A stretch of DNA of 64,000 bases from Pseudomonadota bacterium (GTDB lineage Bacteria; Pseudomonadota; Alphaproteobacteria; Sphingomonadales; Sphingomonadaceae). The notes under the pieces are model-generated. The model was not told where the DNA came from and made no database searches. It saw nothing but the letters and a program-made list of their open reading frames with translations. Shown piece after piece: positions 14,422 through 62,574 of the stretch. The position numbers were made by a program, and so were the translations under genes. Positions within the stretch are counted from its first letter, which is position 1. Every line of letters starts with the position of its first letter. The DNA lies in the NCBI GenBank assembly GCA_040388215.1, contig JAZKCH010000015.1, forward strand, positions 17,771 to 81,770, written 5' to 3'.

Positions 14422-16134
14422 TCAGACCGCGATGATCGCTGCGTCGGCGTCCCCGTCCAGCAGCAGGTGGAGCAGGCCCGGCGCCGGGCGGGCGATCGCA
14501 TGGATGCCCAGTGCCTCGAGTGCGGGTGTCGAGGCGCGGTCGACATCCTTCAAGCGGATCCGCAGGCGGGTGCCATGCTGGCTTGCCGCCTCCAGATTGT
14601 CCGCGCCGCCGAGTGCGGCGACGGTGGCGGGGGTCAGCCGGATGTCGTTGGTGGCGACCGGTGCCGGCTCTGCGGTCGGGGGTGTCGCCTCGTTCGGCGC
14701 GGCGATCGCGTCGCGGATTTCGACCGCGACCGAATCGGCAATCGGACCGAGCACGATCTGCAGCGCGTTATCCGAGGGGCGGATCAGGCCGCGTGCGCCG
14801 AGTGCCTTCAGGCGCGCTTCGTCGACGCGCTTCTGGTTCACGACGATAAGGCGCAGGCGGGTCGTGCACGCGCCAACGCTGGTGAGGTTCGCCGCGCCGC
14901 CGAGCGCTTCGGCAAACGCGGCGCCGCGCTCGCTCTTGGCGACGGTTGCCGCGGCGACGGGTGCATCGCGCTCGCGGCCGGGGGTGGGCAAGTCGAGGCG
15001 CTTGATGACGGTGCGGAACAGGACGTAGTAGATCGCTGCATACGCGAGACCGACCGGGAGCAGGAGCAGCGGCTTGGTCGCCTTGCCGTAGTTCAGCACG
15101 TAATCGAACAGCCCGGCGGAGAAGCCGAAGCCCAATTTCACGCCGAGCGCATCCATCAGCGCCATCGACACGCCGGTCAGCACCGCGTGGATCGCGTAGA
15201 GCACCGGCGCGAGGAACATGAAGCTGAACTCGATCGGCTCGGTCACGCCGGTCAGCATCGAGGTTAGCGCGAGGCTGAGCAGCATGCCGCCGACCGCCTT
15301 GCGACGCTCGGGCAACGCGGTGTGGTACATCGCGAGGCAGGCGGCGGGCAGGCCGAACATCATCACCGGGAAGAACCCGGCCATGAACGCGCCCGCGGTC
15401 GGATCGCCTGCGAAGAAGCGCCGCAGATCGCCCGTGGTGCCCTGGTAATCGCCGGCGACGAACCAGACGATGTTGTTGAGCAGATGGTGCAGCCCAGTGA
15501 CGAGCAACAGGCGGTTGAGCAGGCCGAACGCGAACAGGCCGAACCCGCCTGCGCCGCTGATGCCGTAGCTGAGGCCATCGATACCCGTGCTGAGTGCGCC
15601 GAAGCCGAGGCCGACGACCAGCCCGAGCACGAGGCCTGCGACGCCGCTGACGATCGGCACGAACCGGCGCCCGCCGAAGAAGGCGAGATATTCGGGCAGC
15701 GCGATCGCGGAGAAGCGGTTGTAGAAACTGCCGCCGATCAGCCCCGACAGAATGCCGATCGGTACGTCGAGTCGGGCGATCGCCTTGGCCTTCCACGCGG
15801 CGGTGGCGAGCGCGATCGTGTCGCCGGTGAAACCTTTGAGCGCGTCGGCGGGGACGGTCATCAGCGCCTGCGCACCCTGCGTGGTGACGAGGTAGCAGAC
15901 CACGCCGGCGAGACACGCCGCGCCGTTGCCGTCGCGCGCGAACCCGGTCGCGACGCCGATCGCGAACAACAGGCCGAGATGCGAGAAGATCGCGTCGCCC
16001 GCTGCGCCGAGCACCGCGATGTCGAGCATGTCGGGCTGGCCGAGGCGCAGCAGGAGGCCGGCGACGGGGAGCACCGCGATCGGCAGCATGAGTGCGCGGC
16101 CGAGCGGCTGGAGGGCTTCGAGCAGCGACTTCAT
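14422..16134 (-). CDS. nagE: PTS N-acetylglucosamine-specific EIICB with an extra C-terminal EIIB-like domain
   Basis: LGRALMLPIAVLP, TGLHHLLN and GVTEPIEF (EIIC); ACTTRLR (EIIB, Cys423); second LGGADN...QHGTRLR domain. Confidence 0.92.
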   Translation of the reverse strand: MKSLLEALQPLGRALMLPIAVLPVAGLLLRLGQPDMLDIAVLGAAGDAIFSHLGLLFAIGVATGFARDGNGAACLAGVVCYLVTTQGAQALMTVPADALKGFTGDTIALATAAWKAKAIARLDVPIGILSGLIGGSFYNRFSAIALPEYLAFFGGRRFVPIVSGVAGLVLGLVVGLGFGALSTGIDGLSYGISGAGGFGLFAFGLLNRLLLVTGLHHLLNNIVWFVAGDYQGTTGDLRRFFAGDPTAGAFMAGFFPVMMFGLPAACLAMYHTALPERRKAVGGMLLSLALTSMLTGVTEPIEFSFMFLAPVLYAIHAVLTGVSMALMDALGVKLGFGFSAGLFDYVLNYGKATKPLLLLPVGLAYAAIYYVLFRTVIKRLDLPTPGRERDAPVAAATVAKSERGAAFAEALGGAANLTSVGACTTRLRLIVVNQKRVDEARLKALGARGLIRPSDNALQIVLGPIADSVAVEIRDAIAAPNEATPPTAEPAPVATNDIRLTPATVAALGGADNLEAASQHGTRLRIRLKDVDRASTPALEALGIHAIARPAPGLLHLLLDGDADAAIIAV

Positions 16135-18737
16135 GGGCGGAAACTCCGGGCGAGCGTTCGCACGTCCGCGGCTGAGATGCAGTTCATCGCGGCGGCGGCA
16201 TGCGCCCTACACGCGTCGATCGTAAGCGTCGCGACTAGCGCCTTGATCTCGGGCACGAGCGCGGGCGCGGACGAGAGTTCGGTGACGCCGAGGCCGATCA
16301 GGATCGGTACGGCGAGCGGATCGGAGGCGAGGCCGCCGCATACGCCGGTCCATTTGCCGTGGACCGCGCCGCCCTCGCAGGTGCGCGCGATCAGGCGGAG
16401 GACGGCGGGGTGGAGCCCGTCGAGGTCGCTGGCGACCGCCGGATTGCCGCGGTCCATCGCGAGCGCATATTGCGTCAGGTCGTTGGTGCCGATCGATAGG
16501 AAGTCGGCTTCGCTTGCCAGCAGGTCTGCGGTGATCGCGGCGGCGGGCGTCTCGATCATGATGCCGAGCGCGACATGTTCCGTGTGCTCGGTCGCGGCAG
16601 CGGCCGCGTCGAGCGCGGCGCGGACCGCGCGGAGTTCGGCGAGGCTCGCGATCATCGGCACCATGATGCGGCACTGGCCTGCGGGGCGGACCGCGAGGAT
16701 CGCACGCAGTTGTGCGTCGAGCATTTCGGGATGGGCTAGGCCGACGCGGATGCCGCGCAGGCCGAGCGCCGGGTTCTCTTCCGCGGCGATCGGGAGGTAG
16801 GGGGCGGGCTTGTCGCCGCCGATGTCGAGCAGGCGGACGATCAGCGGGCGGCCGTCGAGCGTGTCGGCGATGCGCTGGTAATCTGCGGTCTGTTCCTCGA
16901 CGCTGGGCGCGCTGTCGCGTTCGAGGAACAGGAATTCGGTGCGAAGTAGCCCGCAGCCCTCGGCGCCGTTACGGACCGCGGCCTCGGCATCGTCGGCAGA
17001 CCCGAGATTGGCGAAGGCTTCGATCCGGACGCCGTCCTGCGTGCGGCATTCGCGCGCGGCGTTGGCGAGCGCGGCGCGGCGGCGTTCGGTCTGCGCGTCG
17101 AACGCGGTTTGCGCGGTCGCCTGTGTTTCGGCATCGGGCGCGACGTGGAGCAGGCCCGCGCCGGCGTCGAGGATCAGCGGCGTGCCCGCGGCGATCTCGG
17201 CGAGGGCTGGGCCGACTGCGACGAGAGCGGGCAGGCCCATCGTCGCGGCGAGGATCGCGACATGCGAGGTGGGGCCACCGCGCTCGACGCAGAAGCCGAC
17301 GATCGAGGCTGTATCTAGGCCGAGCAGATGCGAGGGGAGCAGGTCATCCGCCAGCAGGATCGTGCCGGGTGGGAAGCTCAAGCGCTCGTCGAGGTCTTCG
17401 CCCGCGAGCGCGCGCAGGACCTGGCGTTCGAGGTCGAGCATGTCGTCGGCGCGTTCGGCGAGGCGGGCGTCGCCGGTGGCGTGAAGGGCGTCTGCCTGCG
17501 CACGGATCGCGGTGCGCCACGCATAGGCGGCGCTCTCGCCTTGGGTGATCGCTGCGTGCGCGGCGTCGGTGAGGGTCGGGTCGTCGAGCAGGGCGGCATG
17601 CGCGGACAGGATTGCGCGTTCGGCGCCGGTCGCGGTTGCCGATTTGGTGGCGAGGCGGTCTGTGACCGTAGCGAGCGCGGTGTCGAGTGCGGTGCGTTCG
17701 GTGGTTGCGCCCGAGCCTTCGCGGGTCACGGCGATCTCGGCGAGGCGGAAGAGTCCGGCCTGGCCGATCGCGATTCCCGGAGAGGCGGTGACGCCGGGCA
17801 GGCGGCCGTCAGCGGGGAGGGTGGTGGCTTTAGCGGCATCGCCCTTCTGTTCCCCCGCGGAGGCGGGGGCCCAGGACCCCGCGGCGCCATCGTTCTTGGC
17901 TCCTGGGCCCCCGCCTTCGCGGGGGAAAACGGAAGTGGACGGTGCTACTGCCGGGGGCGTGGTAGCACCGGACCCGGCCTTCTCACCCATGCCGCCGAGG
18001 ATCAGGTCGCCTATCGCCGCGAGCGCGTCGGTGGCATCTGGGCCGGTGGCGGCGAGCGTGATCTCGTCGCCGAGCTTTACGCCCAGCGCCATCAGCGCGA
18101 CCGGGCTGCGGACGTTACCGTCGCGCTCGTCCTTCGTGATCTTCACGTCGGACACGAACTTCCGCGCGGTCTCGCCGATGCGGGCTGCTGGGCGGGCGTG
18201 AATCCCGTGGACCAGCGGCACGACGATCGTGCGGCGGACGGTATCGCCCTCGACGATTGCCACGTCGGCGGCATCGACGCGCGGTTCGAGCGTCATCATC
18301 GCCTCGCCGACGCCGACCAGCTTGCCGGTCTCGCGGCGGACGATGGTGAAGTGCTCGGGGTTGGTGACGATCACCGGCGTGATGACCGCGCGCGCCTCGC
18401 AGACCAGCAGGTCGAGATCGAAGCGGATCAGCGGATCGAGCCGCTGGACGCTCGCGCCCTCGGTTACGCAAGGGGTGAACCCGCGGCCGCCGAGCGCCAC
18501 CGTGTCGAGCCCGATATGCATCAGGATCTCGGCGCCTTCGGGCGTGCGTAGCGTGATCGCGTGGCCGCTGGCGTGGACGCTGAGCACGACTGCGTCGCAC
18601 GGTGCGTGCAGGCAGTCGCCGGTCGGATCGACGGCGATCCCGTCGCCCATCATCCGTTCGGCGAAGACCGGGTCTGGGACCGCCTCGAGCGGCGATGCCC
18701 AGCCCTGGAGGGGCGACGTCAGGATGATCGGCTTCAT
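16131..18737 (-). CDS. nagF: Multiphosphoryl transfer protein EIIA-HPr-EI (NagF/PtsP)
   Basis: LMHIGLDTV (EIIA), GIHARPA (HPr), GPTSHVAIL, GLLRTEFLF and SIGTNDLTQY (EI). Confidence 0.92.
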   Translation of the reverse strand: MKPIILTSPLQGWASPLEAVPDPVFAERMMGDGIAVDPTGDCLHAPCDAVVLSVHASGHAITLRTPEGAEILMHIGLDTVALGGRGFTPCVTEGASVQRLDPLIRFDLDLLVCEARAVITPVIVTNPEHFTIVRRETGKLVGVGEAMMTLEPRVDAADVAIVEGDTVRRTIVVPLVHGIHARPAARIGETARKFVSDVKITKDERDGNVRSPVALMALGVKLGDEITLAATGPDATDALAAIGDLILGGMGEKAGSGATTPPAVAPSTSVFPREGGGPGAKNDGAAGSWAPASAGEQKGDAAKATTLPADGRLPGVTASPGIAIGQAGLFRLAEIAVTREGSGATTERTALDTALATVTDRLATKSATATGAERAILSAHAALLDDPTLTDAAHAAITQGESAAYAWRTAIRAQADALHATGDARLAERADDMLDLERQVLRALAGEDLDERLSFPPGTILLADDLLPSHLLGLDTASIVGFCVERGGPTSHVAILAATMGLPALVAVGPALAEIAAGTPLILDAGAGLLHVAPDAETQATAQTAFDAQTERRRAALANAARECRTQDGVRIEAFANLGSADDAEAAVRNGAEGCGLLRTEFLFLERDSAPSVEEQTADYQRIADTLDGRPLIVRLLDIGGDKPAPYLPIAAEENPALGLRGIRVGLAHPEMLDAQLRAILAVRPAGQCRIMVPMIASLAELRAVRAALDAAAAATEHTEHVALGIMIETPAAAITADLLASEADFLSIGTNDLTQYALAMDRGNPAVASDLDGLHPAVLRLIARTCEGGAVHGKWTGVCGGLASDPLAVPILIGLGVTELSSAPALVPEIKALVATLTIDACRAHAAAAMNCISAADVRTLARSFRP
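17850..17927. repeat. REP-type inverted doublet inserted in frame in nagF (78 bp, 26 codons)
   Basis: TTCCCCCGCGGAGGCGGGGGCCCAGGA-N24-TCCTGGGCCCCCGCCTTCGCGGGGGAA (26/27 inverted repeat). 17848-17874 matches the intergenic repeat arm at 51518-51544 at 24/27. Confidence 0.88.
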
Positions 18738-18740
18738 GGA

Positions 18741-19892
18741 CTAAATTCCGTCTGCGATCTTGAGGCCACCGATCCAGGTGCCGGCGGGCCTGAGGTCGGC
18801 GGTCAGCGCCACCCAGTCGGCGCGCAGGCCGGGGGCTAGCGTTCCACGTTCGTGTGCGAAGCCGAGGAACGCGGCGGGGTTGGTCGCCGCCATCGCTGCT
18901 GCGGTCGGCACGTCGGCGTGCGTCCGCGCGACGAAATTGCGGACCGCGCCGGCCATGTCGAGGTCGGAACCGGCGAGCGTGCCGTCCTCGCCGAAGCACT
19001 TGCCGTCCTCGACATGGATCAGGCGCCCCTGAAGGCGGAAGTCCTTGTCGACCGCACCGACCGACGGCATCGCGTCGCTGACCAGCATCAGCCGGTCATG
19101 CGGACGTGCGTTGAGCGCGAGCCGAAGCGCGGCGTCGTGGACGTGCAGGCCGTCGGCGATCAGTCCGCAATAGACGTGACGATCGTCGAGCGCCGCACCG
19201 ACCACGCCGGGCGCGCGGTGGAGCAGCGGCGACATCGCGTTGAACAGATGCGTGATCCCGCTGAGCCCTGCACCGACCGCATCGATGATCGTCTCATAGT
19301 CCGCATCGGTATGGCCTGCGCTGACGATCACGCCGCCGGCGACCAGCCGCGCGATCGACGCCGCATCGGTCAGTTCGGGGGCGAGCGTCACCATCACGCG
19401 GCCCTTGCGCGGGCGGATCAACAACTCGATCATCGCATCGTCGAGCAGCCGGAACTTGGCGGGGTCGTGGATGCCCTTGCGCGACGGGTTGATCCACGGC
19501 CCTTCGATGTGCGCACCGACCACGCCGGGAACGCCAGCCTCGATCGCGGCGTCCATCGCGTCGAGCGTCGCCGCGATCACGTCGGGCGTGTCGCTGATCA
19601 GCGTCGGCATGAACGCGGTCGTGCCATAGGGCGCATGCGCCGCACCGATCGCGGCGATGCCCTCGACGGTCGGCTGGTCGTTGAGCAACACGCCGCCGCC
19701 GCCGTTGACCTGCGTATCGATGAAGCCGGGAACGAGCCAGCCGTTCTGGAGGTCGATCGCGTCCGACGGCGTACCGTCGAGTGCGGTTATCGACACGATC
19801 CGGCCGCCCTCGACCGTGATCGTCGCGCCGGTCAGCAGGGTGTCGGCGGTGACGATCGTGCCGTTTACGAAATGCATCTGCAGCGAACTCAT
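18741..19892 (-). CDS. nagA: N-acetylglucosamine-6-phosphate deacetylase
   Basis: PGFIDTQVNG, HIEGPW, SAGHT, THLFNAM, LIADGLHV and LAGSDL motifs. Confidence 0.95.
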   Translation of the reverse strand: MSSLQMHFVNGTIVTADTLLTGATITVEGGRIVSITALDGTPSDAIDLQNGWLVPGFIDTQVNGGGGVLLNDQPTVEGIAAIGAAHAPYGTTAFMPTLISDTPDVIAATLDAMDAAIEAGVPGVVGAHIEGPWINPSRKGIHDPAKFRLLDDAMIELLIRPRKGRVMVTLAPELTDAASIARLVAGGVIVSAGHTDADYETIIDAVGAGLSGITHLFNAMSPLLHRAPGVVGAALDDRHVYCGLIADGLHVHDAALRLALNARPHDRLMLVSDAMPSVGAVDKDFRLQGRLIHVEDGKCFGEDGTLAGSDLDMAGAVRNFVARTHADVPTAAAMAATNPAAFLGFAHERGTLAPGLRADWVALTADLRPAGTWIGGLKIADGI

Positions 19893-43854: not shown

Positions 43855-43868
43855 GCTGCCGATCTCGA

Positions 43869-43990
43869 TCCTCCCCCGCCAGGGGGAGGTGGCGCCGAAG
43901 GTGACGGAGGGGGAGGATACGGAACGGCTGTTCTCCTTTCCTCCCCCTCCGTCTGGCAAGTGCCAGACACCTCCCCCTGGCGGGGGAGGA
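43869..43990. repeat. ~120-bp nested palindromic intergenic element (RIME/CIR-like)
   Basis: Outer perfect 23-bp inverted repeat TCCTCCCCCGCCAGGGGGAGGTG; inner 15-bp inverted repeat GACGGAGGGGGAGGA; shares GGCACTTGCCAGACGGAGGGG (inverted) with 59417-59533. Confidence 0.85.
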
Positions 43991-44061
43991 TGAGAGGAGG
44001 GGCTGGGCTAGCCGGCTCCGATCGGGCATGGCTCCCCGCGGTAGGACGGGTGAGCGAACAG

Positions 44062-49483: not shown

Positions 49484-51514
<2,031 letters not shown>

Positions 51515-51517
51515 AAT

Positions 51518-51572
51518 TGTTCTCCCGCGAAGGCGGGAGCCCAGACTGGGTCCCCGCCTTCGCGGGGACACA
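51518..51572. repeat. REP-type inverted doublet between kdpB and kdpC
   Basis: TGTTCTCCCGCGAAGGCGGGAGCCCAG-A-CTGGGTCCCCGCCTTCGCGGGGACACA; each arm is itself a hairpin. Confidence 0.88.
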
Positions 51573-51584
51573 AGGAGTTGCAGA

Positions 51585-52166
51585 ATGACATCCGATTTTA
51601 CCTCCGCCCTTCGCCCCGCGTTCGTCATGACGATCCTGTTCGCGCTGCTGCTCGGGATCGTCTATCCCCTCGCTATGACCGGGATCGGACAGGCCATCTT
51701 CCCCGCCCAAGCGAACGGCAGCCTCGTCATGGCCAATGGCAAGGCGATCGGCTCGACCGTCGTCGGGCAGGCGTTCACCACCGACCGCTATTTCCAGACG
51801 CGTCCCTCCGCCGCCGGCAAAGGTTATGACGGCCTCGCCTCGTCGGGCTCCAACCTCGGGCCGACCAGCCAGGCGCTCGTCGATCGCACCAAGGCTGACG
51901 TCGCCAAGCGCCGCGCGGAAGGCGTGACCGGGCCACTGCCGGCCGACCTTGCTACCGCCTCGGGCTCGGGCCTCGATCCCGATTTGTCGCCAGCCTCGGC
52001 TTACGCACAGGTCGCTCGCGTCGCACGTATCCGCGGCCTGTCCGCCGACACGGTCCGCGGTCTGGTGACGGCTAACGTCGACGGCCCGCTGTTCGGCCTC
52101 CTCGGCGAGCCGCGCGTCAACGTCCTCGCGCTCAACCGCGCGCTGGACGCGACGGGCGCGCGTTGA
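51585..52166 (+). CDS. kdpC: K+-transporting ATPase subunit C
   Basis: QANGSL, YFQTRPSA, SGSNLGP, TASGSGLDP and GEPRVNVL motifs. Confidence 0.96.
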   Translation: MTSDFTSALRPAFVMTILFALLLGIVYPLAMTGIGQAIFPAQANGSLVMANGKAIGSTVVGQAFTTDRYFQTRPSAAGKGYDGLASSGSNLGPTSQALVDRTKADVAKRRAEGVTGPLPADLATASGSGLDPDLSPASAYAQVARVARIRGLSADTVRGLVTANVDGPLFGLLGEPRVNVLALNRALDATGAR

Positions 52167-55509: not shown

Positions 55510-55521
55510 GCGGAGAAAGCA

Positions 55522-55576
55522 TGTTTCCCCGCGAAGGCGGGGACCCAGTCTGGGCTCCCGCCTTCGCGGGAGAACA
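55522..55576. repeat. REP-type inverted doublet downstream of kdpE
   Basis: 54/55 identical to the reverse complement of 51518-51572. Confidence 0.88.
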
Positions 55577-55615
55577 AGGATGCGAGCGGTCCGCTCATAA
55601 TTTTCGCGCCGACCC

Positions 55616-57604: not shown

Positions 57605-59412
57605 TGCACGACCTTCCCGCCATGATGCCGGGCGAGTCACCGATCGAGATGCTCCCGCAGCGTTTCGACGGGCCGCCGCCGCCCTGGTCCGCGCCCGAGC
57701 CGGGGCCGGGCATGGTCGTTTCGAACGACGATATGCTCGCGCGCCGGATCATCCTGATCTTGATGACCGGCCTGCTGGCGACCGCGGCATCGTCCGCGGT
57801 GCAGGAATCGCTGCTCGCCGATGGGCTGAGCCTGTGGGACGCGGTGCTGCTGGCGCTGTTCTTCCCGTTGTTCGCATGGATCGCGTTCGGCTTCATGAAC
57901 GCGGCAATTGGGTTTGTGCTGTTGATGACGGGCGGGCATCCGGGCTTCGTGCCCACGCCGCGGCAGTCCGAACCGCTCGAGGGTCGCACCGCGATCCTGA
58001 TGCCGGTCCACAACGAGGACATCGATGCGGTGTTCGAGCGGATCGCCTGGATGGCGCGCGCGATCGCCGCCGGCGGTGTCGCCGACCGGTTCGATATCTT
58101 CATCCTGAGCGACTCGGGCGAAGCGGCGGAGGCGGCCGAGGTCGCGGCGTGGCAGGCTCTCGCGCCGACGCTCGACTGCGCGCTCTATTACCGTCGCCGC
58201 ACCGAGAATGTGGGGCGCAAGCCGGGCAACGTAGCCGAGTGGATTCGGCGGTTCGGTGGCGGTTATCGGTACATGCTGATGCTCGACGCGGACAGCCTGA
58301 TGGGCGGCAACACGATCATCGGCATGGCGCAGGTACTCGAACGCCGCCCCGCGGTGGCGCTGCTCCAGACCGTGCCCGCGGTGATCAACGGCGTGACGTT
58401 TTTCCAGCGCTGGATGCAGTTCGCCAGCCGCCTCTATGGCCCGATCTCGACCGCGGGCCTAGTCTGGTGGTCGGGCTCGGAGGCCACCTTCTGGGGGCAT
58501 AACGCGCTGATCCGGATCGAAGCTTTCGCGAGCAGTTGCGGTCTGCCCGACCTGCCGGGCCGCGCGCCGTTCGGCGGCGTCATCATGAGCCACGATATGG
58601 TCGAGGCAGCGTTACTGCGCAGGCGCGGCTGGCGCGTGCATATGCTGATGACCGAGGAGACGTTCGAGGAATATCCGCCGACGCTGATCGACGCGGCGGT
58701 GCGCGATCGGCGTTGGGCGCAGGGGAATATCCAGCATCTGAGCCTGCTGACCTCGTCGGGGTTCCACTGGGTCAGTCGGCTGCAGCTGCTGATGGGCGCG
58801 TCGGCGTTCATCACCTCGCCGGTGTGGCTGCTGATGATCGCGACCAGCGTGGTGCAGGCGCTGATCGGCGAGCGCAACATCGTCGAGGCGCAGACCTCGC
58901 TCGAGGTGCTGATGGTCACGCTGTTGCTGCTGTTCGGGCCGAAGCTGCTGAGCGTGATCTGGGCGTTCTCGAATGCGGAGCGTCGCGAGGGGTTTGGCGG
59001 GCGGCGCGGGATCGTGCGGTCGGTGCTGGTCGACGTGCCGTTCTCGATGCTGTCGGCACCGGTGATCGCGTTGACGCAGACGATGGACCTCGCGGGGATC
59101 CTGATGGGCCGCAAGTCCGGTTGGGCGCCGCAGAACCGCGATGCGCAGGAGTTGTCGCTGGCTGACGTGATGCCGCGGTATCACTGGCATGTCGGGGTGG
59201 GCGTCGCGCTGTTGGCGGTGACCCCGTTTGCGCCGATCACTGCGGCGTGGCTCGCGCCGGTGACGCTGGGGCTGTTGCTCAGCCCGTTCCTGACGATGCT
59301 GACGGCGAGCGAGAAGGCGGGGAAGTGGGCGTCGTCGCATGGCATGTTCGTGGAGCCCGGCGAGCATGTCTCGGTGCTCTCACGGCCGTCGCTTCCGGCG
59401 CATAGCAGCTGA
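57604..59412 (+). CDS. opgH: Glucans biosynthesis glucosyltransferase OpgH/MdoH (short form)
   Basis: TGATG coupling; ILMPVHNE, ILSDS, RKPGN, LDADS, FWGHNA, SHD and RDRRWAQGN motifs. Confidence 0.95.
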   Translation: MHDLPAMMPGESPIEMLPQRFDGPPPPWSAPEPGPGMVVSNDDMLARRIILILMTGLLATAASSAVQESLLADGLSLWDAVLLALFFPLFAWIAFGFMNAAIGFVLLMTGGHPGFVPTPRQSEPLEGRTAILMPVHNEDIDAVFERIAWMARAIAAGGVADRFDIFILSDSGEAAEAAEVAAWQALAPTLDCALYYRRRTENVGRKPGNVAEWIRRFGGGYRYMLMLDADSLMGGNTIIGMAQVLERRPAVALLQTVPAVINGVTFFQRWMQFASRLYGPISTAGLVWWSGSEATFWGHNALIRIEAFASSCGLPDLPGRAPFGGVIMSHDMVEAALLRRRGWRVHMLMTEETFEEYPPTLIDAAVRDRRWAQGNIQHLSLLTSSGFHWVSRLQLLMGASAFITSPVWLLMIATSVVQALIGERNIVEAQTSLEVLMVTLLLLFGPKLLSVIWAFSNAERREGFGGRRGIVRSVLVDVPFSMLSAPVIALTQTMDLAGILMGRKSGWAPQNRDAQELSLADVMPRYHWHVGVGVALLAVTPFAPITAAWLAPVTLGLLLSPFLTMLTASEKAGKWASSHGMFVEPGEHVSVLSRPSLPAHSS

Positions 59413-59416
59413 TATC

Positions 59417-59533
59417 TCCTCCCCTGCAAGGGGAGGTGGCCGGCACTTGCCAGACGGAGGGGTGATACGCTCTCGATAGGGCGTCACCCCTCCGTCAGTC
59501 CTGCGGACTGCCACCTCCCCTCGCAGGGGAGGA
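59417..59533. repeat. ~117-bp nested palindromic element (RIME/CIR-like) between convergent opgH and MFS genes
   Basis: TCCTCCCCTGCAAGGGGAGGTGGC...GCCACCTCCCCTCGCAGGGGAGGA with inner GACGGAGGGG/CCCCTCCGTC arms; same family as 43869-43990. Confidence 0.85.
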
Positions 59534-59536
59534 TAA

Positions 59537-60982
59537 TTATGCGGCTTGGTGTCCGCTCAGCTCGGCACCCGCGTTCACCGCGAAACGTCGGTTCCAGATC
59601 GTCGCGGAGGCAGACACCGCGGTCACCACCAGGAACGCGAGCGTGAAATTCGCCAGCGCCGGCCGGGTCGCGCCCGTGCCGAGCATTCCGACATGCAGCG
59701 ACGCCGCCCCCACGCAGATGCCGAGCGACAGCATCAGTTGCTGGAACGTCGCGTAGAAGCTGGTCGCGCTGCTCATCCGCGACGATGGGATCTCGTCATA
59801 CGCGATCGTGTTGTACGCCGAGAACTGGAAGGACATGAAGAAGCCTGACACCAACAATACCGCAAAGATCGCCGGGATCGGCCAGTCGGGGCGGAAGAGG
59901 CCGGCGACGGCATAGCCCGAACTCGCGCATAGCCCGCCGACGATCAGGCTGTTGCGGAATCCGAAGCGCCGGAGCACGCGCGGGGCGAGCCCCTTCATTC
60001 CCAGCGAGCCGATCGCACCGGCGATCGTGATCGCGCCGCTCGCCGCCGCGGTCATCCCGAAGCCCAATTGGAGCATCATCGGCAACAGGAACGGCTGTGC
60101 GCCCTGCGTGATGCGGGTCAGTGATCCGCCGATCACCGACAGGCGGAAGGTGGGGATCCGCATCAGCGACAGGTCGAGGATCGGGTCGCTGCGGTGTTTC
60201 GCGTGGCGGATATACGCGATGCCGGCGATCAGGCCGACCACGATCAGCACGACCGCACGCGAGAGTTCGCCGGTGCGGCTTGTCATCTCGAACCCGAACA
60301 GCAGGCAGCCGAGCGACACACCGGACAGGATGAAGCCGGGGACGTCGAAACGCGCCGGTTTGTCCTCGCGCACCTCGCCGATGTAGCGCGTCACCAGGAT
60401 CACGCCGAGCAGGCCGATCGGCACGTTCAGGTAGAAGATCCAGCGCCAGTCGAGATACGTCACGATCGCGCCGCCGACCGGTGGCCCCAGGATCGGGCCG
60501 ATCAGCGCGGGCATGATCAGCCACGACATCGCCTGGACCATGTCCTCCTTGGCGACGCTGCGGAGCAGGACGAGGCGGCCGATCGGGATCATCATCGCGC
60601 CGCCGAGCCCTTGCAGAAAGCGGGCGACCATCATGAACGGCAGGCTGGTCGCCTGGCCGCACAGCATCGATCCGCCGACGAAAATGAGGATCGCTGCGCG
60701 GAAAATGGTGCGCGAGCCGAACCGGTCCGCGAGACGCCCGCTGGCGGGAATGAAGATCGCCAGCGCGAGCAGGTATGAGGTCAGCGCCGAACTCATGCTG
60801 GTCGCGGGCACGCCGAAATCGCGTGCCATCGTCGGCAGCGCGGTGGCCAGCACGGTCGAGTCCATCTGCTCCATGAACAGCGCGCAGGCGATGATCAGCG
60901 CGGTCACGCGGTAGTTGCTCGGCGTGTGCGGCAGCGCGTCGGGGTCCTTGGCGACGCGCGCGATGGTGTCGGCGGCGGGCAT
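59537..60982 (-). CDS. DHA2-family (14-TM) MFS transporter
   Basis: Likely start MPAADT at 60982; MEQMDSTV, GRLADRFG, GPILGPPVGG and WRWIFYLNVPIG motifs. Confidence 0.9.
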   Translation of the reverse strand: MPAADTIARVAKDPDALPHTPSNYRVTALIIACALFMEQMDSTVLATALPTMARDFGVPATSMSSALTSYLLALAIFIPASGRLADRFGSRTIFRAAILIFVGGSMLCGQATSLPFMMVARFLQGLGGAMMIPIGRLVLLRSVAKEDMVQAMSWLIMPALIGPILGPPVGGAIVTYLDWRWIFYLNVPIGLLGVILVTRYIGEVREDKPARFDVPGFILSGVSLGCLLFGFEMTSRTGELSRAVVLIVVGLIAGIAYIRHAKHRSDPILDLSLMRIPTFRLSVIGGSLTRITQGAQPFLLPMMLQLGFGMTAAASGAITIAGAIGSLGMKGLAPRVLRRFGFRNSLIVGGLCASSGYAVAGLFRPDWPIPAIFAVLLVSGFFMSFQFSAYNTIAYDEIPSSRMSSATSFYATFQQLMLSLGICVGAASLHVGMLGTGATRPALANFTLAFLVVTAVSASATIWNRRFAVNAGAELSGHQAA

Positions 60983-61035: not shown

Positions 61036-62574
61036 TCACGTCTGCCACCCTCCGCCGAGCGCCTTGAACACGTCGACCTGGCGATCGACGAGCAACGCGT
61101 CGGATGCGGCGAGGTTCGCTTGCGCGGTGGTGAGCGCGGCCTGCGCGGTCAGCAGCGACAGGAAGTCGGTGCGGCCGAAGCGGTAGAGCGTACCGGCCTG
61201 ATCCGCGGCGCGCGCGGCGCTGGACTGGGCACGGCGAAGCGCGGCGTTGCGGTCGCCTTCGCGGGCATAGGCGGACAGTGCGGTCTCGGTTTGGCGCAGG
61301 GCCTCGAGCGTGGTCGAATCGAACTGGGCGAGCGCCTGGTCAGCCGTCGCACCCGCCTGCGCGATCTGGGCGCGAACGACGACACGGTTGGGGAAGCTCC
61401 AGCTTATCAGCGGCCCGAGCCCGAGATGGAACGCGTTGGTCGAGCCTAGCGACGACACCGGCCCGGTGAAGCCTGCCGAACCACCGAGGCTGACTTGGGG
61501 ATAGAGATTCGCGGTCGCTACGCCGATCCGCGCGGTGGCGGCGGCGAGAGTGCGTTCGGCACCGCGGATATCGGGGCGGCGGCGGATCAGCGCTGCACCG
61601 TCACCGATTGGGAGCGGGCGGTTGAGCGCGGGCGGCTTTGCGCAGGTGGCGACGTCCTTCGGGTAATCGGCGGGCGCGCGGCCCATCAGCGTGGCGAGGC
61701 GGTACAGCGCGGCGGTGCGTGTCGCGACCTGTGCGGGGATCAGCGCCTCGCTCTGGTCGACTGCGGTACGGGCGCGCGTCACGTCGAACGCGGTGCCGCG
61801 GCCGCCGCGTTGCAGGCGTTGCGTCACGTTGAGAGTCTGGCGTTGCAGGGCGAGGATGCGGTTGTTGGCGGCGAGCACCGAATTGGCGGTGCATGCGGCG
61901 GCATAGCTGCGTGCGGTCTCCGCGGCGACCGTCACGCGGACATTGTCGCGCGCGGCGGCGACCGCCTCGGCATCGCCCTGCGCGGCCTCGATGCCGCGGC
62001 GGATGCGACCTGAGAGGTCGAGCGGATAGGCTAGCGTGATGCCGAGGTTATAGTCGAGCGTGCCGGGGAGGTTGCCGCCGGTCGTGTACGGGCGGTCGAG
62101 CGAGGTGCCGCCGCCGAGTACGGTCGACAATGTGCGGCCTGCGGCGACTTCGGCGACGACTGCGTCGGCGCGGCGGAGGTTGGCGTCGGCGGCGCGGAGA
62201 TCGGTGTTGGCGGCGAGTGCTTCGGTGACGAAGCCGTCGAGGCGGGGGTCGCCGTAGAGTTGCCACCAATGGTCGGGGAGCGGGGTATCGACGAACGCCT
62301 TTTCATGGCCGCTGTCGAACTGGCCCTGGGCGGAGGGGAGGTTGACGGCGGCGCGGTCGAGGAGGGCGTAGTTCGGGCCGGCGGTGGTGCAGGCGGCGAG
62401 GGCGAGCGCGGCGATGACCGTCGCGAGACCGTAGCGACCAACACGCGCCGTCTCCCTGCCCCCGTCATCCTGACGAAAGTCAGGACCCAGAGCCACGAAG
62501 GGCGGCGCTTGTGATCCTGGGTCCTGACTTTCGTCAGGATGACGGACGGGAAGGGGGCTGATCGCGCGCATCAT
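61036..62574 (-). CDS. Efflux outer-membrane lipoprotein (NodT family) with a REP-derived insertion in its signal-peptide n-region
   Basis: ATGA overlap with the HlyD gene stop; lipobox LAAC (Cys62); RRPDIRGAE and ANLYPQVSL motifs; VFKALGGGW terminus. Confidence 0.9.
   Translation of the reverse strand: MMRAISPLPVRHPDESQDPGSQAPPFVALGPDFRQDDGGRETARVGRYGLATVIAALALAACTTAGPNYALLDRAAVNLPSAQGQFDSGHEKAFVDTPLPDHWWQLYGDPRLDGFVTEALAANTDLRAADANLRRADAVVAEVAAGRTLSTVLGGGTSLDRPYTTGGNLPGTLDYNLGITLAYPLDLSGRIRRGIEAAQGDAEAVAAARDNVRVTVAAETARSYAAACTANSVLAANNRILALQRQTLNVTQRLQRGGRGTAFDVTRARTAVDQSEALIPAQVATRTAALYRLATLMGRAPADYPKDVATCAKPPALNRPLPIGDGAALIRRRPDIRGAERTLAAATARIGVATANLYPQVSLGGSAGFTGPVSSLGSTNAFHLGLGPLISWSFPNRVVVRAQIAQAGATADQALAQFDSTTLEALRQTETALSAYAREGDRNAALRRAQSSAARAADQAGTLYRFGRTDFLSLLTAQAALTTAQANLAASDALLVDRQVDVFKALGGGWQT
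62462..62545. repeat. CGTC-type REP doublet (perfect 29-bp inverted repeat, 84 bp) lying in frame inside the outer-membrane lipoprotein gene
   Basis: CCGTCATCCTGACGAAAGTCAGGACCCAG-N26-CTGGGTCCTGACTTTCGTCAGGATGACGG; each arm has a CCTGAC-GAAA-GTCAGG hairpin. Confidence 0.92.

Follow-up and report, generated by a model that had tools for sequence, protein, structure and literature searches.

How does an intergenic palindrome come to lie in the reading frame of a conserved gene, and what becomes of it there? This question is raised by a 64,000-nucleotide stretch of a Sphingomonadaceae genome (GenBank assembly GCA_040388215.1, contig JAZKCH010000015.1, positions 17,771 to 81,770; hereafter the window), in which a pair of inverted repetitive extragenic palindromes (REPs) occupies positions 17850-17927, inside the nagF gene for a fused phosphotransferase system (PTS) protein. 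We consider it probable that this element is a REP copy of the Sphingomonas faeni/aurantiaca group which was inserted once, long ago and in frame, into the DNA for a disordered interdomain tether, and which is now a translated passenger of the protein. The features on which the argument turns are the following.

16131-18737, minus strand: PTS multiphosphoryl transfer protein EIIA(Glc)-HPr-EI, 868 amino acids (aa), called 'NagF' by synteny
17796-17999, minus strand: interdomain tether between HPr and enzyme I (EI), residues 247-314, Ala/Pro-rich and predicted to be disordered
17850-17927, minus strand: REP doublet of the 'long form', 78 bp or 26 codons, residues 271-296 of the EIIA-HPr-EI protein
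17901-17927, minus strand: 5' arm on the mRNA, TTCCCCCGCGAAGGCGGGGGCCCAGGA, encoding FPREGGGPG; forms its own hairpin (stem of 7 bp, loop GAAG) with the tail CCCAG after it
17877-17900, minus strand: centre or spacer of the doublet, encoding approximately AKNDGAAG; divergence at or above the neutral rate
17850-17876, minus strand: 3' arm on the mRNA, TCCTGGGCCCCCGCCTCCGCGGGGGAA, encoding SWAPASAGE; its C-run carries the 1-nt deletion of the S. aurantiaca allele L129

The element was recovered as an inverted repeat at 17850-17879 and 17898-17927, the third-longest of its sort in the window, with 30-nt arms that are 93% complementary and lie 18 nt apart. The 27-nt arm at 17850-17876 recurs on the opposite strand at 17901-17927 with one mismatch, and no match of this kind was seen in 100 shuffles. 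The nagF copy has the layout of a 'long doublet', namely a hairpin unit, CCCAG, a spacer of ~28 nt, CTGGG and the inverted unit, and its translation reads FPREGGGPGAKNDGAAGSWAPASAGE (residues 271-296). Repeat search and translation thereby bear out the original prediction, made from the sequence alone, of an in-frame doublet with 27-bp arms encoding these residues. The strong mRNA hairpin anticipated in that prediction was also obtained by computation: the mRNA strand folds into a single long hairpin of -72.9 kcal/mol (z = -6.6 against shuffles). A terminator reading of this hairpin was rejected, there being neither a T-run nor a terminator-like call at the site. Searching the entire window with the Rfam covariance models at gathering threshold gave no match.

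The sole long open reading frame (ORF) through the element is the minus-strand frame 16131-18737. Pfam places PTS_EIIA_1 at residues 6-128 of its product, PTS-HPr at 168-246 and PEP-utilisers_N at 315-429, followed in the C-terminal part by the mobile domain (455-528) and the phosphoenolpyruvate-binding domain (563-838); NCBIfam concurs with Pfam on the identity of the gene. The element had been assigned to the HPr-EI linker, and this is correct because it lies between PTS-HPr and PEP-utilisers_N, in the Pfam gap at residues 247-314. In the ortholog alignment this tether is hypervariable in both length and sequence. AlphaFold2, run on a 35-sequence alignment, folded the domains on either side of the tether confidently, and predicted residues 251-303 to be coil with a predicted local distance difference test (pLDDT) score of 24-28. 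It is because of this low pLDDT, with no secondary structure, that we place the insert in a disordered tether.

Where, then, did the sequence come from? The 21-nt unit CCCGCGRAGGCGGGRRCCCAG matches the window six times, as three inverted pairs, against an expectation of 0.08. One pair is the nagF element and the other two are short-form doublets of the same family.

51517-51573, strand not assigned: short-form doublet of the nagF-element family, 57 bp, its units 1 nt apart, between kdpB and kdpC
55521-55577, strand not assigned: short-form doublet of the nagF-element family, 12 nt past the kdpE stop codon (55509)

The first of these lies between the kdpB stop at 51514 and the kdpC start at 51585 and ends ACAAGGAG, 7 nt ahead of the kdpC ATG; the second is its reverse complement. 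Positions 17848-17874 match 51518-51544 at 24/27, exactly as had been claimed for the arm between kdpB and kdpC, and the similar copy said to follow kdpE is the one at 55521-55577. Each unit of the family forms a small hairpin with a 7-bp stem and a GAAG loop, followed by CCCAG. To look beyond the window, one genome per species was scanned for the exact 21-nt unit in 8-kb blocks. The unit was present in at least 120 blocks, approximately 40 of them from S. faeni, S. aurantiaca-like, Leaf and PP- isolates. Among the matches listed, the other blocks come from alpha-, beta- and gamma-proteobacteria, and each faeni-group genome has several blocks with the unit. The arm is therefore repeated both in the window and in other genomes, in agreement with the original prediction. 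Single exact matches were also found in a Streptomyces genome and in metagenome-assembled genomes (MAGs) labelled Elusimicrobia, Chloroflexota, Anaerolineales and Phycisphaerales (L025, L061, L093, L106 and L128); searching 596 Gb with a 40-bit pattern rich in G+C is expected to give some such matches by chance, and MAG contamination is a further possibility.

Paired units among the matches listed are predominantly 22 nt apart (n = 42), and a second class at 47-49 nt includes nagF. An intergenic long doublet of Sphingomonas sp. Leaf198 (L047:7401-7477) has a centre that matches that of nagF at 20/28, a value reached by none of 300 shuffles. Because this intergenic copy has a homologous centre, the nagF centre travelled with its arms. 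The Leaf198 copy is the only long-form centre that is individually significant; the rest have a loose CA.RAACG motif in common, as expected of drifting centres. These results bear directly on whether an insertion took place at all. The palindrome could have arisen in place from a Gly/Pro/Ala linker, or the genomic repeats could descend from the linker, and it is in keeping with both that the linker is GC-rich and of low complexity and that an exact empty site cannot be recovered. However, the 21-nt unit recurs, with the same head, loop and tail, at dozens of sites between genes, both within the clade and elsewhere among proteobacteria, an intergenic copy has even the spacer in common, and outgroup linkers are without trace of the element. 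The probability that we would give to an origin in place is close to negligible.

The ends of the doublets have a feature of their own. In the Sphingomonas loci, 20 of the 48 doublets have GGAG or GGAA within 0-2 nt on one side (expected 3.5%, p = 5e-17). The doublet end reads ...GAACAAGGAG, a Shine-Dalgarno-like motif, with an example in the window at 51566-51587, and about nine doublets have a start codon at +8 to +12, such as the kdpC ATG at 51585. Several nagF alleles read GGGGGAACAAGGAG. This GGAG/GGAA end is either part of the element or a preference at the insertion site.

To follow the history of the insertion, 120 orthologs were collected by protein search and the DNA of the exception alleles was aligned. 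The 26-residue block is present in P0001-P0054, alleles of the S. faeni/aurantiaca clade (91-100% identity, 857-870 aa), and absent from every relative at 60-78% identity. Element-free orthologs have a shorter, different linker, as the original prediction expected. In about 54 alleles the frame is open through the element, flanking indels notwithstanding. The exceptions inside the clade are P0058 and P0060, from which the element is wholly absent; P0057 and P0059, which have kept FPREGGGPG alone; P0055 and P0056, which have kept the centre and the second arm alone; and P0065, an EI-only gene call. In the DNA of the exception alleles the boundaries coincide with unit edges. The indel is not the 'clean' one that had been foreseen, as the surrounding linker is hypervariable and half-element alleles exist. 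A bootstrapped tree was then built from 799 domain codons, leaving out the tether. In this tree L003, which has the left unit only, falls inside {L005, L008} with a bootstrap of 100%, and L004, which has the right part only, falls inside {window, L006, L195} with a bootstrap of 98%. Because each is nested among element-bearing alleles, L003 and L004 are independent secondary deletions.

Two more orthologs differ in the tether. P0046 (Joint Genome Institute, JGI; 869 aa) has a diverged first arm, LSREGGASG, and an extra AFTS inside the second arm, in frame. The tether of P0064, a JGI metagenome ortholog at 73% identity, has ...TGSARRGLGSRETSTP..., a peptide that a different single REP unit (CTGGGCTCCCGCGA...) could possibly encode, in which case this tether would have been hit independently in an outgroup. 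Scanning metagenomes for further alleles gave two close relatives only.

Is the long frame nevertheless the real product? In the S. aurantiaca allele L129 (L129:2830-3044, GCA_036855955.1) one C is missing from the C-run of the right arm. The EIIA-HPr frame stops 15 codons on (301 aa) and the EI frame (564 aa) begins with a TTG start in a 4-nt overlap; the cluster to which this EI-only protein belongs has seven members. Either the gene is truly split in this allele or the homopolymer was misassembled. Two overlapping ORFs meeting just past the element are what would be seen if EIIA-HPr and EI were separate proteins, produced through termination and re-initiation close to the repeat, and the Shine-Dalgarno-like GGAG/GGAA at the end of many family copies, GGGGGAACAAGGAG in several nagF alleles included, would suit this reading. 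Yet some 54 diverged alleles have one open frame with no stop codon and many nearby indels, the only ATG near the element in the window is out of frame, all element-free relatives are single EIIA-HPr-EI fusions, and the L129 split is a 1-nt homopolymer change that could be an assembly error. We consider it very improbable that the repeat marks a boundary between two gene products.

The rate at which the element evolves was compared in seven full alleles, with 57 arm sites. Mean pairwise divergence was 0.245 at four-fold degenerate sites in the domains, 0.34 in the element centre and 0.39 in the flanking tether, and 0.119 in the arms (0.081 without L006). Arm complementarity is 24-26/27 in six of the seven lineages; in the other, L006, the arms have decayed at approximately the neutral rate and complementarity is 16/27. 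With L006 included, 37/57 arm columns are invariant versus 201/465 four-fold columns (p = 0.003), and without it 45/57 versus 226/465 (p = 1.7e-5), with 15/19 of the third codon positions of the arms invariant. Invariant columns in the centre number 5/21. Conservation thus attaches to the arms rather than to the whole peptide, and acts at the nucleotide level, because the centre drifts while most third positions of the arms are invariant once L006 is set aside.

Such rates could mean that a selfish insertion is now kept for its -73 kcal/mol stem, acting on nag mRNA or DNA. The stem could cause the ribosome to pause between HPr and EI, allowing separate domain folding; it could be a processing or decay boundary that uncouples the expression of EIIA-HPr from that of EI-EIIBC; or, by analogy with the REPs and bacterial interspersed mosaic elements (BIMEs) of E. 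coli, it could bind a nucleoid or topoisomerase factor. In favour of such a role, the arms, third positions included, lie about three-fold below four-fold sites in six of the seven lineages while the centre and flanks drift, complementarity is kept in the same six lineages, the fold is more stable than shuffles (z = -6.6), and L008 has one compensatory GC->AU change. However, RNAalifold on eight alleles found one compensatory pair in 29 and a covariation term of +1.28, thus no net covariation, with arm changes that mostly break pairs; selection on the structure finds no support in the covariation. Moreover, the unit deletions of L003 and L004, the empty alleles L001 and L002 and the decayed arms of L006 all persist in otherwise intact genes, the site has no T-run or terminator-like feature, and homogenisation against other copies would give equal arm conservation. 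We judge an exapted hairpin to be unlikely.

The translated passenger that we prefer would have come about as follows. A single insertion, before the S. faeni/aurantiaca radiation, would have entered the DNA for the Ala/Pro-rich HPr-EI tether of this N-acetylglucosamine PTS protein, which is likely to tolerate nearly any length and sequence. The EI domain would still be made, because the insert keeps the frame and is without a stop codon. The insert would then be carried along and, judging from the open frame, translated as 26 extra tether residues, with selection on EI keeping the frame open and the element itself a passenger. Its fates would be those of a passenger: a centre in neutral drift, unit deletions on two occasions, one lineage with decayed arms and a frameshift hotspot in the C-run. 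The conservation of the arms, at about one-third of the neutral rate, would result from a nucleotide-level process common to the family and not from a function of the peptide. Candidate processes are homogenisation against other copies, self-templating of the hairpin, or a factor that recognises hairpins.

Several observations weigh against this explanation. Arm conservation is below the neutral rate, contrary to the prediction for a pure passenger, and could mean that the hairpin has acquired a function; the test of arm rates itself rests on 7 alleles and 57 sites. The empty pair L001/L002 forms a clade, the placement of which in a star-like radiation is poorly supported (54-55% bootstrap), and its emptiness may be ancestral or a third loss. 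L002 weakly resembles the last 13 nt of the element, which hints at loss but is not convincing. There is no crisp empty site, the linker being too diverged to give exact insertion boundaries or its original length. Finally, four public runs flagged 'RNA?' proved to be genomic-like, with contigs of 18-24 kb and flat depth, and are uninformative on transcription or processing.

How often does the family enter coding sequence? Coding context was determined from 150-nt flanks using a codon-usage log-odds model trained on 25 long window ORFs, in place of a test on third-position G+C (GC3) only, which was too weak at this G+C content. Among the 72 family copies with scorable flanks (Sphingomonas loci, among the matches listed), nagF alone has coding-like flanks on one strand and in one phase, with an open frame through the element. 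This 1/72 covers mid-gene copies; N- and C-terminal overlaps were left out, as starts are not fixable without orthologs. A typical copy lies just past a stop codon or beside a start codon, and it is because of the stop codon in its flank that it is placed just past the gene. The proposal that the family colonises flexible linkers without breaking the frame thus holds for the nagF copy, which is both in a linker and in frame, and is overstated for the family because mid-gene insertion is rare.

A further long-form doublet stands at the 5' end of a gene.

62462-62545, minus strand: long-form doublet in the NodT gene, CGTCATCCTGACGAAAGTCAGGACCCAG + 26 nt + inverse, 84 bp or 28 codons; CGTC head, different stem

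This doublet has the same CCCAG...CTGGG frame as the nagF family and lies in frame at the 5' end of the NodT-family lipoprotein ORF 61036-62574 (minus strand). The ORF of this efflux lipoprotein has an ATG overlapping the stop codon of the adaptor gene upstream, and no in-frame ATG, GTG or TTG was found between the doublet and the lipobox. NodT orthologs without the doublet (464-467 aa) start MRRG...LLLAGC and are ~46 aa shorter. Five faeni-group alleles (513-520 aa), together with L099, have RHPDESQDPG...LDPDFRQDDG ahead of the signal peptide; in the element-bearing alleles the frame is open from the upstream ATG despite indels, and an internal GTG is not conserved. It looks like a REP doublet has here been absorbed in the n-region of a signal peptide, which would be cut off on maturation.

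To which class of REPs does the family belong? The nagF-family unit is CCCCCGC-GAAG-GCGGGGG, with a 7-bp stem (8 bp with a mismatch) and a 4-nt loop, a short palindrome like those of the CGTC-tagged REPs, which are imperfect palindromes with a stem of 8-9 bp and a loop of 4-5 nt (Di Nocera et al. 2013, BMC Genomics 14:522, PMC3733652). The 5' CGTC of that class is replaced in nagF, where the arm heads read CTGT and CGTT. TTGT is the commonest head in the faeni group (53/107 units), and CGTC occurs within 10 nt upstream in 3/107. The same hairpin in non-faeni proteobacteria has a CGTC head in 98/152 units; an example from outside the faeni group, CGTCATTCCCGCGAAGGCGGGAATCCAG, is the REP called CGTC-1 in Di Nocera et al. 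2013. Calling the family CGTC-type, as was done originally, is therefore apt for the hairpin in other proteobacteria and not for the faeni group itself. CCCAG, and with it the 'CCA' tail, follows the stem in 87-99% of units. The family is also dispersed in high copy as inverted dimers, with three doublets in 64 kb and 42 dimers at 22-nt spacing, and two inverted REPs with a spacer that form one hairpin are a REPIN-like trait. On the evidence of these heads, the nagF copy is to be classed as a relative whose head is a transition variant (YGTY) and not as a strict CGTC member. By its sequence, the element is a close relative of the CGTC-1 REPs with a variant head in a REPIN-like arrangement.

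Rickettsia palindromic elements (RPEs), reportedly described by Ogata and colleagues in 2000, are said to lie in frame in coding genes and to be translated. RPE-1 is ~100-150 bp long and A+T-rich, and affects dozens of genes in a reductive, obligate intracellular genome. Similarly, the nagF element is an in-frame palindromic repeat in a conserved gene, at a site that the protein tolerates, inherited vertically since and with orthologs that are without it; unlike RPEs, coding copies of the faeni family are rare, at the 1/72 given above. RPE-4 and RPE-6 have been re-read as CGTC-1 and CGTC-4 REPs (PMC3733652). The same paper found GTAG/CGTC REPs within genes in several species, more than half of such inserts being dimers or groups that encode 20-30 aa, and in its Additional file 3 the intragenic CGTC-1 entries number 22 in S. 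wittichii, with more in S. alaskensis and with hosts that include the pyruvate dehydrogenase E1 and E2 components. The present family resembles these CGTC-1 REPs in its G+C-rich hairpin (7-8 bp stem, GAAG/GAAA loop, CCA(G) tail), in its mostly inverted dimers, intergenic near ORF ends, in its abundance in Sphingomonadaceae, with no transposase match in the 1.25 Mb searched, and in the minority found in frame inside genes, where over half of the CGTC-1 inserts are likewise dimers encoding 20-30 aa. It differs in that TTGT/YTGT replaces CGTC in the nagF copy and in 104/107 faeni-group units, and in its 7-bp stem. A PTS EIIA-HPr-EI tether as host and the S. faeni clade are not on the lists of PMC3733652, which is also without a dated allelic series.

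In the REPIN-RAYT system (Bertels & Rainey 2011, PMC3116915; PMC3337134), GTAG-type REPs are extragenic and flank a single-copy REP-associated tyrosine transposase (RAYT). The nagF element has in common with REPINs the two inverted units with a short spacer in one long hairpin, and its copies likewise form a population that outlasts speciation; unlike REPINs, it is intragenic and without GTAG. A RAYT had been expected, and neither tblastn nor phmmer gave a match in the window and 195 loci (1.25 Mb, no whole genome), a weak negative for which the query was an E. coli sequence with no Pfam match and an NCBIfam NF047646 match at 179 bits. The absence of a match fits the published statement that CGTC-class repeats are without association to transposase genes. 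In-frame MITEs (miniature transposable elements with inverted repeats) of Coxiella burnetii (PMC5896051) are also small non-autonomous palindromes able to add a peptide to a host protein; unlike the nagF family, MITEs have terminal inverted repeats derived from insertion sequences as well as target-site duplications. A MITE reading was rejected for want of a target-site duplication: in 40 short doublets, with boundary shifts of -3 to +3 and duplication lengths of 2-9, counts were at or below chance.

It would be a surprise, though not an extreme one, if sequence-specific machinery still acted on these hairpins, either as an enzyme that homogenises or re-copies YGTY hairpins or as a host factor, or if exaptation now uncoupled EIIA-HPr from EI. 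Were this so, the enzyme would be the missing mobilisation system of the CGTC-class REPs, and a copy in an essential frame, where the codon grid makes gains, losses and repairs visible, could serve, along with the alleles that are halved or frameshifted, as a natural reporter of that machinery.

As for the surroundings, the operon runs on the same strand in the order GntR/UTRA regulator, SIS-domain protein, NagA-like amidohydrolase, EIIA-HPr-EI and EIIBC permease, and neighbouring genes are separated by 3-4 nt gaps or overlap. We take this layout to be that of the nag operon in which the fusion protein is named NagF in Pseudomonas. In runs X8-X11, contigs begin or stop within the repeat arms (one spans 16000-17926, another 17898-19000), several unrelated contigs have a 30-nt arm in common, and the single-nucleotide polymorphism 17883 G>A is the only one in 17847-17927. 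Because the contigs of these four runs break in the arms, we conclude that the repeat fragments short-read assemblies within nagF. A separate palindromic family is present in the window at 43858-43991 and 59404-59546, both intergenic and one of them between convergent genes; it consists of TCCTCCCC.GC.AGGGG.AGGTGGC hairpins in inverted pairs with ~70-76 nt between.

Taken as a whole, the nagF case is not a new kind of element but an already described phenomenon met in another clade and another host gene, in a copy whose head is a variant one. What is added here is the allelic series that dates the insertion and follows its fates, the finding that arms and centre evolve at contrasting rates, and the NodT copy. 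The locus is a natural experiment in how selfish palindromic DNA turns into protein sequence, in which one dated insertion has met with retention, unit loss, arm decay, a frameshift that may split the three-domain fusion, and possibly complete loss in sister lineages. Interdomain tethers and signal-peptide n-regions are places able to absorb such DNA. For annotation, the insertions account for the odd FPREGGGPG...SWAPASAGE and RHPDESQDPG...LDPDFRQDDG peptides and for the assembly breaks in nagF. REP biology as known is unchanged; if anything here opens a further line of work, it is how slowly the arms evolve.

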